This document shows, piece after piece, positions 2,856-33,921 of a stretch of DNA of 34,974 nucleotides. Made by a program: the position numbers and the translations under genes. The DNA is from a virus (Duplodnaviria; Heunggongvirae; Uroviricota; Caudoviricetes). The notes beneath the pieces are model-generated. The model was not told where the DNA came from and ran no database searches. It saw only the letters and a list, made by a program, of their open reading frames with translations. The stretch lies in IMG/VR virus record IMGVR_UViG_2778261250_000007, one strand, 5' to 3'. Within the stretch, counting starts at the first letter, position 1. Each line of letters starts with the position of its first letter.

Positions 2856-3074
2856 TCAAAGAGAGAGCGCCACCTGTCCTGATTTCATTGGATGCGGCTG
2901 AACCGGATTTGACTCTTTTGGCGTTGCAATCGAACGAACAAAAGTTTCATGGGTAACAAAAGTATGGCTGCAGTTAATGTTCTGGCACTGGTTGTAACGC
3001 TCTTTGGTCAATGAAGATACCTGAAAACTGCTGCGAGTATGGGCGGCACTTCCACACAGTGGGCAAATCATCAT
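2856..3074 (-). CDS. ogr: Late-gene transcriptional activator Ogr (zinc finger)
   Basis: 72-aa product MMICPLCGSAAHTRSS...QCQNINCSHTF with the C-x2-C...C-x4-C pattern typical of P2 Ogr. ATG at 3074 preceded by GGGGAGA; the track ORF is longer, and I chose the RBS-supported start. Confidence 0.8.
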   Translation of the reverse strand: MMICPLCGSAAHTRSSFQVSSLTKERYNQCQNINCSHTFVTHETFVRSIATPKESNPVQPHPMKSGQVALSL

Positions 3075-3164
3075 TTTTCGAGTTCTCCCCATTTTTGCTA
3101 AATTCACAATAATGATACCGCATTATTCCATTTTGCAAACTTAAAAGTTCTCCATTGCGAAGAA

Positions 3165-4265
3165 TCATTCCATTTCGAAATCATCAATCCTCACTTCAAG
3201 CTCCAGACTGGTCGTAAAACCGTTATCCGGGCTGACGGTATGTGTCAGAGTCGTAATGGTCCATTCCGCATCATCTATCGGCTGTTTAAAGCCACTGACT
3301 TTCACTGGCATTTCCGTGTAGAGATCTGCCCGCCCTTCTGCCAGTTGTAGCGAGAATGACGCAACGCCGCGTTGCAGGCGTTCCCACTGCATTTTCGCTG
3401 CCCGTTCAGCGTTGCTCCGGTTGGCATAAGTGCGATTAAGTACCAGCACATTTTCATCCGTACCCACCAGGTAATCGCCCTGCTTCGCTTCCGGCTCTTT
3501 CTTCTGCTTCTTAGTTCTGCGCTTACGCTTCACCGTGGTGCTTTCTTTCTTCGCAGGTTCGCGGGTATGCAACCAGCTGGCAATTACGCCCGTGTAGGCT
3601 CCGCGATCTGCCAGGGTAAAGCGGTGACTGTCGCCGTCCTTGCGTGTGATAGTGATCACTGGCAGTGGTTTACCAGTGGCGTTTTTGCCCTGTCCCTGCC
3701 GGATGAATAACAGATTGCCATTTTTCACCGACGCGATGGCACCGTACTGTCGCGCCAGCCGCATCAGAAAACTGCCGTCACTCTCATTAGTCTGGTCTAT
3801 ATGCTCCACGGGCTTATCCGACAGATCTTTACCCAGTGCCATCTTCAGCTTGTGCCGCGCGGCTATTTCCTTCACCACTTCCCCGACGGTGGTCTTGTGC
3901 CACGACTTTTCACGACGGGTATTCAGCGTTTCCCGAAAATCAGCACTTCGCGCCCGGATAGTCAGGCGGTCCGGTGCGCCAGTGTGTTCAATCTCGTCCA
4001 CCGTGAATGCCCCTTTCGGGAAAAGCGGCTGCCCCTTCCAGCCCAGCGCCAGCGTAATGACCGCACCACGGCGCGGCAGCACGATTTTTCCGTCGGCGTC
4101 GTCCAGCTCCAGATCAAGCTGGTCTGCGTCAAAGCCCCGGTTATCCGTCAGCGTCAGCCCCATCAGGCGGTTGTCCAGCACAGTGGTGATATCCCTGCCT
4201 TCAATACTGATGCTGAATGCCGGAGTTTTGTTGCCTTTGTTAAGCAGTTCAGAGCTGAAATTCAC
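3165..4265 (-). CDS. D: Tail protein D (late control D)
   Basis: 366 aa; position after U and before ogr. GTG start at 4265 with GGGAGGG upstream, overlapping the U stop (GTGA). Confidence 0.85.
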   Translation of the reverse strand: MNFSSELLNKGNKTPAFSISIEGRDITTVLDNRLMGLTLTDNRGFDADQLDLELDDADGKIVLPRRGAVITLALGWKGQPLFPKGAFTVDEIEHTGAPDRLTIRARSADFRETLNTRREKSWHKTTVGEVVKEIAARHKLKMALGKDLSDKPVEHIDQTNESDGSFLMRLARQYGAIASVKNGNLLFIRQGQGKNATGKPLPVITITRKDGDSHRFTLADRGAYTGVIASWLHTREPAKKESTTVKRKRRTKKQKKEPEAKQGDYLVGTDENVLVLNRTYANRSNAERAAKMQWERLQRGVASFSLQLAEGRADLYTEMPVKVSGFKQPIDDAEWTITTLTHTVSPDNGFTTSLELEVRIDDFEME

Positions 4266-27477: not shown

Positions 27478-29892
27478 TTAATACAGGTTCCGCCACTGAT
27501 CATCTTCCTGCAAACGCTGGTTCCGATAGAAGATACGCAGGCCTGCTCCTGACGGAATACTGCCTCCGCGAAGGAGTAAATCGACCTCTTTCTCGCTGCC
27601 ATCAAATCCTCTGGACTTCAGCTCATACACGAGCTGCAGTCGCTGATGGTCTGTAATTCGCTGTTTGTAGTCTTTACGCCGTTTCGGTTTCACCAGGCGT
27701 AACCTTGCTGCCAGTTCCCGGCGCTCTTTTTTGCTCATACTGTGCAGGTAATCGTGCAACTCCTTGTCATCCATGCTGGTAATGTCCGTTCTGGGGTCCC
27801 CATCAGCTGATTTATCTTTCTCCTGTTGGTTCAAATTTTCAGCAAGGGGACAGTTATTGCCACGAGTCCAAGGGGCGCAAGCGCCCTGGTCGGCTGCCGC
27901 CTCCTGAACGTCAACGGCCTTACGAACCATTTTCCACTTCACCGCATGAGTGCAGATCTTGCCCTCTGCAATGGGTGACCAGATGCCATAAATACGAATA
28001 CCGTGATCGCCATATGCGGTCGGTTCTTCGTTGATTTCATAAGCAGTTCTGATGAGGTGATATTTGCGGGGAACCAGTACGCCGCCCTGCTTCATGATGT
28101 AGGTGGCAAAACAACCAGCATCAGCAGCAGCCAGGATTGCATCAAGGCGCGGGTTATCCAGTACCGGCGCACCTGCTTTTTTGTCCCCCTGTTGCCTTGC
28201 CGCCTGACCAGCCAGCAATCGCAGTTCACGGTAAGCCTGACGCCCCGGAATGCCAAAGAAGCGGAATTGCTGAACACGATGCAGAGACGCCCAGGCATTA
28301 ACGTATTCAGCGTTATCACGCAGGGATTTACCCGTTTCCTTGCTGATCTCGCCAGCCAGACCACGCCCGTCAATGTTCTTACTGATGTATTTCGCGATGT
28401 AGCTTGTTGGCGTACCTTTGCGCGGGTTTATCAGCTCAGACTTAAAGCGTGGTCCCGTGTTATTACCCAGCTCCTCGCGGTCTTCACGAATGGCAAACTT
28501 ACGCAACAAAGCAGTAATGGCGCGGCGATCTTTTTTGCGCATAAAACACAACAGGTGCCAGTGAACTGTACCGTCATGATGCGGCTCAGCCACCCGCACG
28601 CCATACCAGCGCAATCCGGCTTTGTGCATCGCCTTACGAAATGCAGCAAACATGCCGACCAGATAATCACTGCTTTGTCTTACCGTCGTATTTGTCCAGG
28701 TCGGGTTGGGCCTGCCGTTATTTAGCGTGGAATGGAAACGTGACGGACAGGTGATGGTGTAGAAAACGGCGCAGTCACCACGCATTTCCGCGATAAGCTC
28801 CAGACCTTTAACACAGGCCATCATCTCATTGCGGCGATGCGCAGGGTTGCTGCTGCTGGCGTTTACCACATCCTCCATGTCCAGCGTGTCGCCGTCTTCG
28901 TTCACCAGTTCATGAGAACGGAAAAACTCCAGCGACTTACGGCGCTGCTCACGTTTATGCATCACGGCTTCATAGCTGACATAGGGAGATGCTTTTTTGC
29001 TGACCAGGCAAACAGCACGCAACTGCTCTTCCCGCCATTCGCAACGCATCTTCCATAATTTCCGGTACCACCAGTCGGCGCACAACATACGCGCCAGCGA
29101 ACCCGGAATGAGTTCATAAGGCACGGGTTTACGGCGGTTTCTTTTCCGGCGGAGTTGCTCAAACGCAGGCGGTATGACATCCAGTCGCAGGGTTTCTGCT
29201 GCCACCTTTTCCCATGTCTTGCGGATTTCTTCAGGCTTAACGTCATCGGTGGCATACAAATCGCCACAAGCTGCATCAAGGCACATGCTCATATGCGCAG
29301 CAACAAGGGTGGACAGGCGTTTCACCTGATCCTGACTCATTTCAGGCAGAATCAGCAGGCCGTCCAGCCCTTCATGGCTTGCCATAAAGCGAAAAGAAGT
29401 GGATAGCTGACTGTCGCGTACATGCTCCAGCCGTTCCAGACATGGCTTAATCGTCTCACGCAAATAGCGGGAATAAGCCTTTGGCCTGCCAAGGCTGCTG
29501 AAGTATTCAATACGTTGCATCAGCGGCTTGCTGATATGGGAAGGCTGGGCATTGACGTCCGCCAGAATGACCATATCTGGATTAAAACGCTGCTGCTCAT
29601 GCGCCAGCTTTGCCCGACTAATGAGCTTATCCTGCTCCATTTCGCGCTGGACAGGATCACGGGATTCATTAAAGAAATAACGCTCCCAGACCTGATCACT
29701 CAGTGCCTCGCGGCGCAGCTGTTCCTGCTCGTTATCGACAGCGTACAGAGTGATCAGGTTTGAAAGTGCAGAAACCGGCGCAACTTCCGCCGGGTCCAGA
29801 TAAGGGTTAATGGCCTTTTTCGGGCTGTTCCATGAGAACGATGCGGCAGCCTCGTTAAAGCCGCAGCAGTTGTTCATATCGGCATGGCTCAT
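27478..29892 (-). CDS. A: Replication initiation protein A (rolling-circle endonuclease)
   Basis: 804 aa, ATG at 29892; size and position as P2/186 gpA. Confidence 0.85.
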
Positions 29893-30746
29893 GCACGTAC
29901 TCCGTACACGGCAGAACTATCCACGCCACGCGAATAATCAAATCCCACCCAGCAGCGCGGCCCGGAAACAGCAATGATTTCTGTTGCTGATTTACCCTCG
30001 CCAGCTGCCACACCGATGCTGCGTTTTGCCTTGATGTAGTGGTGAGTAAAATTGCGATACAGCGAACGGATCAGGGATGTGTCACTGTTAGAAACAATGA
30101 CCGGATGTCCTTCTGATGACCGATGTTCAAGAACAGATGCCAGGTGATACTGGTCATCTTCAGTGAAACCATCAGTGTGATAGCCGGAAAACTTACCGTC
30201 ATACGGCGGATCGCAATACACCACATCCCCCGCCTTCAACATCGCCAGCGTTTCATCAAAGCTGGCGCAGATAAACGTTGCTCGCTGGGCCTTTTCTGCA
30301 AATGCGCGAATTTCTTTTTCAGGGAAATACGGATTTTTATAATTACCGTAGGGAATGTTGAAATGCCCGCTCTTGTTATAGCGACATAAACCACGGTAAC
30401 CGTGACGATTGAGATACAGGAAATATACCGCTTTCATGAAATCAGTAATTTCAGTGGAGTAATTAAACTCCTGCCTTATGTTGTAATAAGCCACCTCCCT
30501 GTTTGCGATCTCAAATAAAACTCTGGCGCGAGATATAAACGATTCACAATCAGCAGCAACCTTTTTATAGAGGTTGATTAAATCAGGATTAATATCCGCA
30601 ACCAGATAGCTGGGGTAATCCGTCTCCATCATCACAGCACAGGAACCCACGAAAGGTTCAACCAGTCGCGGGCCAGCAGGAAGGTGTTTTTTCAGTTCGG
30701 ACATAATGGCGGTTTTATTTCCCGCCCATTTCAGGATGGTGCTCAT
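29889..30746 (-). CDS. DNA N6-adenine methyltransferase (Dam-like, D12 class)
   Basis: 285 aa from ATG at 30746 ([11 protein letters not shown]...), with motif I PFVGSCAV and motif IV DPPY. RBS GGAGGTG. The track ORF extends 20 codons upstream. Confidence 0.8.
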
Positions 30747-30970
30747 ACAGCACCTCCGTTGTAATGTTTGCCTTTCAGCTCTGCGATTTCCTGACAGGTA
30801 ATGCAAAGCTGCACCCCCGGAATGGCACGGCGGCGTGCTGGCGGAATTGGCGCTTCACACTCAACGCAAAGCACGCGGGACACGCCCGGCGTTTTGGCAC
30901 GGGCAGCACGGATATGACGTTGGCGTTCTTCTTCAACTCGCTGCTGTACGAGATCCATTGCATCAGCCAT
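30743..30970 (-). CDS. TraR/DksA-family C4 zinc-finger protein
   Basis: 75 aa with CVECEAPIPPARRRAIPGVQLCITC (C-x2-C ... C-x2-C). Confidence 0.6.
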   Translation of the reverse strand: MADAMDLVQQRVEEERQRHIRAARAKTPGVSRVLCVECEAPIPPARRRAIPGVQLCITCQEIAELKGKHYNGGAV

Positions 30971-32033: not shown

Positions 32034-32543
32034 TCACAGCAAACCGAATGAAGCACCGAGGCCAGTCACGGTATCAACTGCACTCGCCATCGCAGGATTA
32101 GCCTGTAAACGGGCCTGCAATGAAACAGCCGCCAGCGCCATCAGTCGTGTTACAGAGTTAATGCTGCTGATAGCATCACGACGACCTGCACTGGTTTTTA
32201 CATCGCCAGATACCGCACCTGCAGCAACACGCCCGATCTCTGCGGTTGCACTCATGACGTAATGTGGCAGTTTCTCTTTTGCTACCTCATTAATCGGTAC
32301 ACATGGCAGACAATGAATCTGTGCCAGAAAACCATCTACCAACGTTGAATCTTCAGTCAGATCGGTAAGCAGCCAGATTTCTGGTGCGGTTAATAAATGA
32401 GGTTGAGCTGGGTTCAGCTTGTTCCGCAGAATCTGCACATTCATGCCCGCACGTTCTGCCAGTTGCACCAGATTGTGGCGCAGTGCGAATGCACGACAGG
32501 CTTCATCAAAATGTGGATGTTTGGAAACTTGGTAATCAAACAT
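32034..32543 (-). CDS. cII: Phage regulatory protein CII (186-type)
   Basis: 169 aa from ATG at 32543 ([45 protein letters not shown]...) with GGAG upstream. Confidence 0.7.
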
Positions 32544-32607
32544 GGTTTTCAACTCCGAACTTATCGCAAAATCGAACTCAGCGTCTTATTGCGAAAATAG
32601 ACGTCTA

Positions 32608-32811
32608 TTAAGCAGACAAAGCATCAACAGTCAGAGCAGCCAGGTTAATCATTACCTTTTCACGTTTTTTGTCTTTACGAAGACGATGACGAGGTAGTCG
32701 GCCATCAGCCAACATGTCGTTAATCGTATCAATAGAAAGGCCAGTCAGTTCGCTATAACGTTCGATTGTGACATGTGGTGTATTCAGAGTAATTGAAATG
32801 TTAGGTGTCAT
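32608..32811 (-). CDS. Apl/Cox-like small HTH DNA-binding protein (excision/lytic regulator)
   Basis: 67 aa, ATG at 32811, first gene of the lytic operon divergent from cI. HTH-like segment [22 protein letters not shown]. Confidence 0.6.
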
Positions 32812-32900
32812 AAGGCAACATTCCTTCTAGATATGGCTTGTGGCGAGCCGTTGTTTGTCGTGATTAGTAGTGAAGGCTCCAAAAGAACACTTCTGGTTCA

Positions 32901-32929
32901 ACTTTAAGATCGCTTTTGGAATCTGTCAA
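32901..32929 (-). promoter_or_regulatory. Candidate early lytic promoter (pR/Pe-like), -35 TTGACA / -10 TAAAGT, within a repeat-containing operator region
   Basis: Minus-strand TTGACA (32929..32924), 17-nt spacer, TAAAGT (32906..32901). Plus-strand TTTTGGA copies at 32914 and 32934 flank the -35, with a third TTTGGA at 32945. Confidence 0.4.
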
Positions 32930-32956
32930 CGAATTTTGGATTTCTTTGGAGGACTT

Positions 32957-33526
32957 GTGGATTTCAATAGCGGCGGTAAGAAAGCCATAGAACGTTTAGT
33001 TGAAGCATATGGGTTCGGTACTCGTCAGGCTCTCTGTGATCATTTAGGTGTTTCTAAGAGCACTATGGCAACGCGCTATATGCGTGATATTTTTCCAGCA
33101 GATTGGGTAATCCAGTGCGCCCTTGAAACGGGCACCTCGCTTAATTGGCTAACAACAGGGCATGGTTCAAAGCAAGCATCAGCAAATACAAATACTATAG
33201 AAGTAGAAAAATATTTATTGTCTGATGGAGCATTGCAGAAAGACGGTTTTTATATTTTTGATAAGGGATTTCTACCCTCTACGTTTAAAAAACCTTTTGT
33301 CATCACAGATAACAATTCTGAATTTATTTGTGATAAAGAATTTGATGATATACGTGATGGTAAATGGGTAATAAGTATTGATGGCGAAATAACGATCCGT
33401 GACATTACTCGTTTACCCGGTGGAAGAATCTTCGTCGAGGGTGGAAACAGAGCCTTCGAATGCAAGATAGAAGACATTGAAATAATTGGTAAAATTATAA
33501 GTTTAACAGTCAAGTATGTTAAATAG
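32957..33526 (+). CDS. cI: CI-type immunity repressor (186 CI-like)
   Basis: 189 aa from GTG at 32957 (strong RBS GGAGGA): (M)DFNSGGKKAIERLVEAYGFGTRQALCDHLGVSKSTMATRYMRD... The track ORF starts 29 codons upstream at a GTG without an RBS. Confidence 0.7.
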   Translation: MDFNSGGKKAIERLVEAYGFGTRQALCDHLGVSKSTMATRYMRDIFPADWVIQCALETGTSLNWLTTGHGSKQASANTNTIEVEKYLLSDGALQKDGFYIFDKGFLPSTFKKPFVITDNNSEFICDKEFDDIRDGKWVISIDGEITIRDITRLPGGRIFVEGGNRAFECKIEDIEIIGKIISLTVKYVK

Positions 33527-33541
33527 TACCGGGAGGAAACT

Positions 33542-33733
33542 ATGCTTGGTAAGGTATTTTTTGTGGTTTTGTCATGTTCTTTGTTATTAAACCCACTAAC
33601 TACCTATGCTAGAAATTATCCCTGCTCAGGGAAAAAGGGAGGTGTTTCTCACTGTACCTCAGATGGCAAATTCGTTTGCAATGATGGAACTATTAGTAAA
33701 TCCAAAAAAATCTGTACTAAAAACTCACGATAA
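33542..33733 (+). CDS. Small secreted Cys-rich protein (moron candidate) between cI and int
   Basis: 63 aa, ATG with strong RBS GGGAGGAAAC. Signal peptide [23 protein letters not shown], then a 40-aa mature region with four Cys and many Lys. AT-rich. Confidence 0.5.
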
Positions 33734-33921
33734 TTTTTGTTTTTATATCTGCGTCTAAAATAAAAATGAGCCGCAGGTTAACCGCAAAAGTTACATGCTC
33801 ACATAGCAAAAAGAATAGCCAACTTCATTATGGCTTCAGTGAGATGTATGGTCGTAGGATTTCATACATTGACACTGGTTATACATACAGTAAAAATGCT
33901 CTCTACTGGAGGGCATTTTTT

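Follow-up and report, generated by a model that had tools for sequence, protein, structure and literature searches.

Copies of the motif CTTNTGGA at the lytic promoter of a 186-like prophage probably serve as recognition elements of the prophage's own 186-family CI repressor and form an operator array of the 186 type across the promoter pR. This reading was supported by the overlap of the copies with pR, from about +16 to beyond the -35 hexamer. The window (the whole stretch of DNA that was analyzed, 34,974 nucleotides) most likely carries an uncharacterized immunity type of the known 186 switch, with no new architecture and no hybrid.

Gene content of the immunity region

The immunity region of a 186-like (Peduoviridae) Escherichia coli prophage makes up the final 3 kb of the window. 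Positions 32800-33760 were 100% identical to NZ_OZ501612.1, where the RefSeq annotation lists CII, a hypothetical protein (corresponding to the apl-like gene), the repressor CI, a protein of the YdcA family, and an integrase; on the far side of the integrase come the host genes rcdA and ybjJ. Based on open reading frames and the RefSeq annotation, the genes form divergent operons, with int and cI on one strand and the apl/cox-like gene, cII, and fil on the opposite strand. The prophage was present in 125 of 5,426 complete E. coli genomes (~2%; at least 95% identity). No deposited phage record matched the cI region at the megablast level, and the best CI protein match among phages had 58% identity. 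The genes and the CII site were as follows.

32037-32543, minus strand: cII, 169 amino acids (Pfam Phage_CP76, E 3.2e-42; RefSeq annotation)
32517-32543, plus strand: CII-binding inverted repeat ATGTTTG-N13-CAAACAT at the cII start, marking the establishment promoter pE
32608-32811, minus strand: apl-like gene, 67 amino acids (phrog_575, "Cox-like excisionase and repressor," E 1e-29)
32957-33526, plus strand: cI, 189 amino acids, with a GTG start at 32957-59, the start also used by RefSeq for the identical E. coli locus

Judged from its sequence, the repressor is a two-domain member of the 186 CI family, a family defined by a helix-turn-helix domain at the N terminus and an oligomerization domain at the C terminus; homology to 2FKD concerns the C-terminal domain. 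The cI product matched both PF07022 (Phage_CI_repr, E 2.5e-31) and PF16452 (Phage_CI_C, E 3.4e-29) in Pfam, as well as the PDB entries 2FJR (186 CI; E 1.5e-31, residues 10-183) and 2FKD (E 1.1e-14), and was 33% identical to 186 CI. The apl-like product had no match in Pfam. The CII half-sites at 32517-43 were identical to those of the annotated 186 CII site of pE.

Lytic and lysogenic promoters

A consensus scan of positions 32400-33200 returned only one promoter, located on the minus strand, with a 17-nucleotide spacer and 10 of 12 consensus matches. The facing promoter for cI was sought by position, and the promoter elements considered here were as follows.

32924-32929, minus strand: TTGACA, -35 hexamer of pR (promoter scan), the lytic promoter, from which apl, cII, and the early genes are transcribed
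32901-32906, minus strand: TAAAGT, -10 hexamer of pR (promoter scan), within the invariant block 32896-32926
32793-32821, plus strand: candidate pL, the cI maintenance promoter, with TTGAAA at 32793-98, a 17-nucleotide spacer, and CAACAT at 32816-21

Conservation was assessed in a 10-sequence alignment (A1) of the window and nine sequences of the same CI N-terminal-domain type, which came from three E. coli variants, Citrobacter, Scandinavium, Silvania, Enterobacter, Kosakonia, and one metagenome bin. The TTGACA hexamer was kept in 8 of the 10 sequences; exceptions to it included TGTTAA in L098 and, outside A1, TGCCAA in L047. Transcription from pR would start at about 32894. The candidate pL was assigned from its position and its conservation: its placement with respect to the apl start codon matches that of the annotated pL of 186 (TTGCGA-17-CATGAT), and both of its hexamers were invariant in A1. 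It fell below the threshold of the consensus scan, and its -35 hexamer lies inside the apl coding sequence. Its putative start, at about 32828, would stand face to face with that of pR, ~66 bp away.

Repeat copies at pR

Six copies of the motif, labeled a (inverted), f (weak), b, c, d, and e, were found at the switch and gave the consensus CTTNTGGA.

32878-32885, minus strand: copy a, TCCAAAAG on the plus strand and CTTTTGGA on the minus strand; pR positions of about +9 to +16
32890-32896, plus strand: copy f, CTTCTGG, a weak half-site on the right side of candidate dyad O1
32913-32920, plus strand: copy b, CTTTTGGA, in the pR spacer adjoining the -35 hexamer; candidate O2
32933-32940, plus strand: copy c, ATTTTGGA, upstream of the -35 hexamer; candidate O3 or an auxiliary site
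32944-32952, plus strand: copy d, CTTTGGAGG, overlapping the cI Shine-Dalgarno sequence GGAGG
32954-32965, plus strand: copy e, CTTGTGGATTTC, spanning the cI start codon

Relative to the -35 hexamer, the copies lie at -46 (inverted), -34, -11, +10, +20, and +31. The starts of f, b, c, and e are spaced by 23, 20, and 21 bp and span +16 to beyond the -35 hexamer, and c, d, and e lie about 20, 30, and 40 bp from b. Copies a and b together form a perfect 8-bp inverted repeat (CTTTTGGA at 32913-20 being the other arm) whose members are 35 bp apart, which is not a whole number of helical turns. Copy e matched TTTTGGATTTC (32934-44), 21 bp away, at 10 of 11 positions. The left half within copy a and copy f compose the candidate dyad O1 (CCAAAAG-AACA-CTTCTGG, 32879-32896), and a scan of the whole window for CCAAAAG-N4-CTTTTGG returned this site as the best match (13/14), followed by 32902-19 (11/14). 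The O2 dyad, at 11/14, has a poor left half, and O3 has none.

Several of these elements had been described in a first-pass annotation of the region. The TTTTGGA copies at 32914-32920 and 32934-32940 (20 bp start to start), the TTTGGA at 32945-32950, and the minus-strand TTGACA-17-TAAAGT between the apl-like gene and cI were all recovered, the repeats in the sequence itself and the promoter by the scan. The identification of the region as a 186-like immunity switch, with the minus-strand promoter as its lytic promoter, was borne out, as was that of the repressor as the large 186 type (both Pfam domains and the 2FJR match). Its suggestion of a cI promoter face to face with pR gained support from positional homology with the 186 pL, at a location (32793-32821) partly outside the stretch it covered, and the repeats that it proposed as operators are plausible candidates, lying in a block that is exchanged with the cI N-terminal domain while Apl stays. 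Copies a, f, and e were absent from it.

Comparison with 186, P2, and other switches

Operators of coliphage 186 (genus Eganvirus) were taken from its GenBank annotation and from secondary descriptions. In the GenBank record, pR is covered by three CI sites (57 bp), seven Apl sites fall between the two promoters, FL and FR lie ~300 bp away, and the pL -35 hexamer overlaps the apl start; three operators two turns apart, covering 56 bp at pR, have been described, with weak, poorly defined extra sites on the wheel (PMC3675496). The window resembled 186 in gene order (int-cI and apl-cII-fil), in its two-domain CI with the solved homologues 2FJR and 2FKD, in its strong lytic promoter facing a weak candidate cI promoter with a -35 hexamer over the apl start codon, in the predicted gap between start sites (~66 bp, versus 62 bp in 186), and in having the same CII half-sites at pE. 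The candidate operators would also fall about two turns apart, as the three pR operators of 186 do, with one at the +1/-10 edge, one inside the spacer, and others upstream of the -35 hexamer as far as the cI start codon. It differed from 186 in the motif (CTTNTGGA here, ATTCAC-N5-GTGAAT and TCTCCCAATTGAGAGA in 186), in having one site with a dyad and no FL/FR-like sites found within ~500 bp, in its 67-amino-acid Cox-like Apl (phrog_575), which is unrelated in sequence to the 87-amino-acid 186 Apl, and in integrating beside rcdA/ybjJ instead of in a tRNA-Ile gene.

The repeat motifs of eight other switches were placed relative to the -35 hexamer in the same manner. In L089, TCACAWWTCG was found in the same orientation at -34, -14, and +15, the last copy lying within a perfect palindrome, and in L087/L005, TTCAC/ATCAC was found in the same orientation at -35, -15, and +14. 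L088 carried the perfect palindrome GTACCCAATTGGGTAC where copies a and f sit in the window, plus a lone half-site at +13. L097 carried an 11-bp perfect inverted pair around the -10 hexamer, with the 35-bp center-to-center distance and the right-arm position of copies a and b. At the station of copy b (-15 to -7 from the -35 hexamer), other CI types had their own motif. Since the same stations are used in other 186-type switches, direct repeats around the -35 hexamer are a normal look for the family.

The uncharacterized Escherichia phage ESSI2_ev129 (Quadragintavirus) has a CI that is 44% identical to that of the window, with the similar recognition helix STSTMGTRWMRD. It likewise carries TTTGGAA/TTCCAAA at two stations, one downstream of the start of pR and one inside the spacer adjoining the -35 hexamer, with a further same-orientation repeat upstream of the hexamer. 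Unlike in the window, its motif orientation is mirrored relative to the promoter, its inverted pair is 27 bp apart (versus 35 bp), and its direct repeats around the -35 hexamer measure 11 bp (AATAACTTTCC) with a separation of 29 bp.

Copies b and c could instead be a true direct-repeat pair of the P2 C type, set 20 bp apart around the -35 hexamer and read asymmetrically, in which case the switch would join a 186 protein to P2 logic; a mixed P2/186 architecture had been proposed in the first-pass annotation, and we consider it unlikely. Its appeal lies in two exact TTTTGGA copies placed two turns apart on either side of the -35 hexamer, together with the use by P2-family C repressors of direct half-sites two to three turns apart that span the -10 or the -35 hexamer, with one C dimer per half-site and only one helix in specific contact (PMC2995052; PMC1904263). 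The operators of P2, P2 Hy dis, and W-phi resemble the window array in having same-orientation half-sites about two turns apart across a promoter element, and same-orientation copies flank the -35 hexamer in ev129 and L089 as well. However, copy c falls in the least conserved part of the switch and the inverted copy a is conserved, so that the conserved pair is a and b around the -10 hexamer, not b and c around the -35 hexamer. The third copy (32945) falls on the Shine-Dalgarno sequence of cI, where TTGGAG is also found in a CI type with a different motif. The protein is unrelated to P2 C and has both 186 CI domains; P2 C is a single-domain protein of ~99 amino acids, versus 189 amino acids and two domains here, and the two families are without similarity in sequence (PMC2995052). 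The half-sites of P2 number exactly two, and P2 lacks cII, whereas the window has at least five copies, including an inverted one, and a cII gene with its CII site at pE, as in 186.

A hybrid origin is also unnecessary, as many 186-type switches share the layout, and in L089, L087/L005, and ev129, copies in one orientation recur close to +1, within the spacer, and upstream of the -35 hexamer. The statement that P2 C half-sites flank the -35 hexamer needs amending, as the half-sites of P2 span the -10 hexamer and those of P2 Hy dis span the -35 hexamer (PMC2995052). The likely logic of P2 C, in which a dimer at each direct half-site makes one specific and one less specific helix contact (PMC2995052), may by analogy still describe how the window array is read.

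Conservation of the copies among relatives

Conservation within A1 differed from copy to copy. A 31-bp block (32896-32926) was invariant in all 10 sequences and took in the -10 hexamer, the complete spacer (copy b included), and some of the -35 hexamer; copy b was thus identical in 10/10. RNA polymerase alone would not need an invariant spacer, so its conservation counts toward an operator role for copy b. Copy a was identical in 9/10 sequences, the exception being L098 (TCCGAAAG). Copy c lies in the most variable part of the switch and was represented in relatives by TTTTAGA, TTTAAGA, TTTAGA, TTCAGA, and TTTGGA, with its A/T-rich character retained; a role as an UP-like element is possible. 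Copy d was a full TTTTGGAGG in L093 to L096, and TTGGAG was also present at its place in the B-type (L006-like) switch, whose operator motif differs. Copy e was CTTTTGGATTTC, with a TTG start, in L094 to L096. The conservation of d and e is ambiguous, since d falls on the Shine-Dalgarno sequence, and e on the start codon together with the Asp-Phe codons. Copy f had lost TGG in relatives of other genera (CTTCGAG or CTTCGGG), and the O1 dyad is weak because this half-site is without TGG outside E. coli.

This pattern bears on a narrower reading, in which the inverted pair a/b (35 bp, straddling the -10 hexamer) would be the only functional part and copies c to e by-products of an UP-like element, the ribosome-binding site, and the start and Asp-Phe codons. 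We give it a small chance, comparable to that of a P2-type direct pair. The conservation of a and b but not of c is what it predicts, and it accounts for copy d as the Shine-Dalgarno sequence, for copy e as the start codon plus GAT TTC, and for TTGGAG at the Shine-Dalgarno position of the B type. The same 35-bp geometry with an unrelated 11-bp motif in L097 fits it too. An UP-element A-tract is expected at about -45 to -38, and copy c, read on the pR strand as CCAAAATT, occupies approximately those positions. Against this reading, in L093 to L096 the decay of copy c is accompanied by perfect TTTTGGA at d and e, which resembles turnover of sites, not an absence of constraint. The regular phasing of c, d, and e at 20, 30, and 40 bp from b would be left over, and ev129, L089, and L087 have a clear motif copy upstream of the -35 hexamer.

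Action of the repeats at the RNA level was judged very improbable. In the cI leader, taken as the transcript from pL or pE, CUCCAAA (32877-83, at copy a) would pair as an anti-Shine-Dalgarno sequence with the ribosome-binding UUUGGAG (32945-51), and the other copies would compete, tuning cI translation. Complementarity is perfect over 7 nucleotides for a/d and 8 nucleotides for a/b, and the pairing potential was retained in 97% and 100% of alignment cells, but these counts are uninformative, as the helices almost never vary and no compensatory changes were seen. The leader did not fold better than shuffled sequences (z = -0.70), its minimum-energy fold was without these pairings, and it had no match in Rfam. 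Pairing also leaves unexplained the spacer station (copy b), at which many CI types put different motifs.

Clustering of the motif and its exchange with cI

TTTTGGA occurred 5 times in the 34,974-bp window (both strands), with 3 of these inside 63 bp at the switch, and TTTGGA occurred 11 times, with 4 inside 73 bp. Among 300 first-order Markov versions of the window, any 6-mer present at least four times in 75 bp was found ~0.16 times per 35 kb, affecting ~14% of simulated windows. Given this rarity in simulations, a cluster inside an intergenic stretch of ~100 bp is unlikely by chance. For CTTNTGG, 14 occurrences were found in the window, 4 of them within 97 bp here, and 0 of 500 simulations reached 4, in a test that was post hoc, the consensus having come from these same copies. 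A chance, functionless feature of A/T-rich intergenic DNA is a poor account of the cluster and is given very little weight. The motif is short, its longer form was defined post hoc, and 6-mer clusters of this kind do turn up somewhere in a 35-kb sequence at the simulated frequency, but the three clustered TTTTGGA copies coincide exactly with the lytic promoter, conservation of a and b extends across genera, and parallel arrays occupy the same stations in other CI types.

The boundaries of the exchanged DNA associated the motif with cI. Where phages have apl and cII in common with the window (~90% identity) and a different cI allele, homology stops at ~32863; Apl was nearly identical across switches with five CI types, and the sequence to the right of 32863 was type specific. 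The window type and the B type, its closest sister type, could not be aligned only over 32830-32990, a segment made up of the inter-promoter region, the operators, and the first ~10 cI codons. The motif is thus inherited with the cI N-terminal module and not with Apl, which makes the copies candidate CI operators and not excisionase sites. Possible Apl sites were found elsewhere in the intergenic region.

32840-32873, plus strand: possible Apl sites GTGG, GTTG, GTGA, and GTGA at exact 10-bp intervals, between pL and pR

This GTGR array falls in DNA common to switches with the same Apl and other CI types. In 186, the Apl sites are direct repeats 10 to 11 bp apart between pR and pL (PMC7498355). 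The array is assigned to Apl with low confidence, and tentatively so because the B type has a similar Apl and different DNA there. Least probable of all is that the TTTTGGA repeats are themselves sites of the Apl/Cox-like excisionase-repressor, which in P2-like phages are direct repeats one helical turn apart: the ~10-bp spacing of c, d, and e and the 10- to 11-bp spacing of the direct repeats at the 186 excisionase (RDF) sites (PMC7498355) would fit, but the copies lie within and upstream of pR, on its cI side and not between pR and pL, near-identical Apl is encoded in switches that lack TTTTGGA and are wholly different to the right of 32863, and the separate 10-bp-periodic GTGR array is present in the DNA that these switches have in common.

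Proposed mechanism and repressor specificity

In the favored reading, that of a CI operator array, the core would be the conserved inverted pair, with copy a just downstream of the pR start and copy b in the spacer. Copies c, d, and e would be same-orientation upstream copies that turn over among relatives and are probably weaker auxiliary sites. Each dimer-sized site would contain one good half-site, with a recognizable dyad at O1 only, and an array with one good half-site per site would take on the look of direct repeats with a period of about two helical turns. If the homology with 186 is a guide, CI would occupy pR from about +16 to -60 as an oligomer, a wheel of dimers whose helix-turn-helix domains stand about two turns apart, and would exclude RNA polymerase. 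With pR silenced, the weak convergent pL would be freed from interference, as in 186, and would transcribe cI and int. Counting against this reading are the variability of copy c, the ambiguous conservation of d and e, the weakness of the O1 dyad, the 35-bp spacing of a and b, the recognition helix shared between types with different motifs, and the results for distal sites and the ogr/B promoter given below. We infer CI binding, its stoichiometry, the wheel, and the promoter start sites.

The recognition helices of the window CI and the B-type CI are the same at the usual base-contacting residues (SKST[M/L]ATRYMRD), with TTTTGGA and GTGAAC as the respective motifs. Differences between the two proteins were located in the N-terminal arm and at G21K, V32I, M37L, I45S, and D49E. 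A shared helix with different motifs means either that specificity is set elsewhere (in the N-terminal arm and flanking residues) or that the motif is part of the recognition element. The helix was nearly the same in types with the unrelated motifs TTTTGGA, GTGAAC, ACCCAATTTCG, and GTACCCAA. It is conceivable, if rather doubtful, that the N-terminal arm, together with a few residues flanking the helix, determines specificity, with one specific half-site per dimer of the wheel-forming repressor and same-orientation arrays, not dyads, as the natural operators. The N-terminal arm codons and the operators share the unalignable block 32830-32990.

Searches of the window for distal FL/FR-like sites (TTTTGGA with at most one mismatch, and the dyad) returned none near +/-300 bp; within ~500 bp, the one exception was a TTTGGA that belongs to the CII site. 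Three further candidates for CI sites were rejected. The exact TTTTGGA at 33701 belongs to ydcA-like coding sequence that B-type loci carry as well. At the FR position (32596-609), the palindrome AATAGACGTCTATT bears no relation to the pR motif, and the other types lack it. A CI site at the ogr/B late-activator promoter, as in 186, was considered for the ATGGAAT that occurs twice in 3108-3175; this region is identical in window-type and B-type lysogens and so does not covary with CI type. A second 186-like switch was found in 0 of 60 window-type genomes, a count that cannot separate site competition from homoimmunity, as the integrase and attachment site are common to these prophages.

Implications for 186-type switches

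For genome annotation, the region is an ordinary, standard 186-type immunity region. The 186 switch is a model for DNA-wrapping repressor wheels and for control by convergent promoters, with a CI that forms a 14-mer wheel wrapping operator DNA, and to our knowledge 186 alone has been dissected among the switches of this type. The window represents a natural heteroimmune relative of 186 with a simple candidate operator motif, and its close sister types differ mainly in the operators and the first ten cI codons. The motif and such sister types make it a convenient system for asking how the family shifts specificity and how much dyad symmetry the wheel needs.

Distribution of switches and the late-activator promoter

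Among the 60 E. coli genomes bearing the window immunity type (H121 to H180), none carried a second 186-like switch; the B type, the L006-like sister type, is by itself found in ~13% of the complete genomes of this species. The absence of a second 186-like switch could result from attachment-site competition or homoimmunity. The late-activator promoter region (window 3108-3175, minus strand), located upstream of an ogr/B-like gene (2856-3071), contained two copies of ATGGAAT, together with ATGGAG and TTGTGAAT, and did not differ between lysogens with window-type and B-type CI.

CI variants and the interval between cI and int

In some related loci (L005, 1321-2265; L087, 2386-3327), the encoded CI was 314 aa long and its N-terminal helix-turn-helix domain was duplicated; PSP3 cI was likewise long (861 nt). 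The cargo between cI and int varied among relatives and included the following:

Window 33542-33733, between cI and int: YdcA-like secreted peptide, 63 aa
L003, 1984 onward, between cI and int: KAP P-loop NTPase
L004 (1945 onward) and L088, between cI and int: DUF4041 protein

This interval resembles a variable slot for morons or defence genes. After int, just past the window's end, the end of the integrase gene in locus L001 (5197-5235) was adjoined by CTAACTTATTGTTTT, present twice in tandem, and by a pair of ACCACCA repeats with a 10-bp spacing; these repeats are probably attachment-site arm sites or excisionase sites.

Elements flanking the switch

A perfect 14-bp palindrome, AATAGACGTCTATT (window 32596-32609), overlapped the apl stop codon and occupied the place of FR, a distal CI operator, in 186. 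The palindrome had no sequence relation to the pR motif, was degenerate in L003, and was missing from switches with a 73-aa Apl. On the plus strand, a terminator-like hairpin, ATGGCTTGTGGCGAGCCGT (window 32833-32851), followed by a T-rich tail, lay a few bases past the predicted start of pL, the candidate cI promoter, and was kept in relatives. The hairpin could act as an attenuator or as a stabilizing 5' stem of the cI leader.

The pR spacer and adjoining GATC

The spacer of the lytic promoter pR in B-type IMG/VR loci (L050 to L086) had the form GATCGCAC[NNN]GAAATCGTCAA, with a hypervariable patch of 3 to 4 nt (AGT, AAT, GGT, ATT, TAT, GAT, CAT, and others) in otherwise near-identical switches. 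The window-type counterpart of this patch was the invariant copy b of the candidate CI operator motif, which forms an inverted pair with copy a. In L097, from a Pantoea metagenome-assembled genome, an 11-bp perfect inverted repeat (ACCCAATTTCG and CGAAATTGGGT) straddled the pR -10 element upstream of cI, at a distance of ~70 to 105 bp from that gene. Its arms were spaced as in the a/b pair of the window (35 bp centre to centre), and its right arm had the same position as in that pair.

A GATC immediately adjoined the pR -10 element of the window (32908-32911, within AAGATCGC), and a GATC beside this element was common to five CI types (the window type, the B type, L088, L089, and L097). A Dam-type methylase was encoded by the prophage within the pR operon (window 29889-30806). 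Either pR activity or repressor binding might be linked to methylation.
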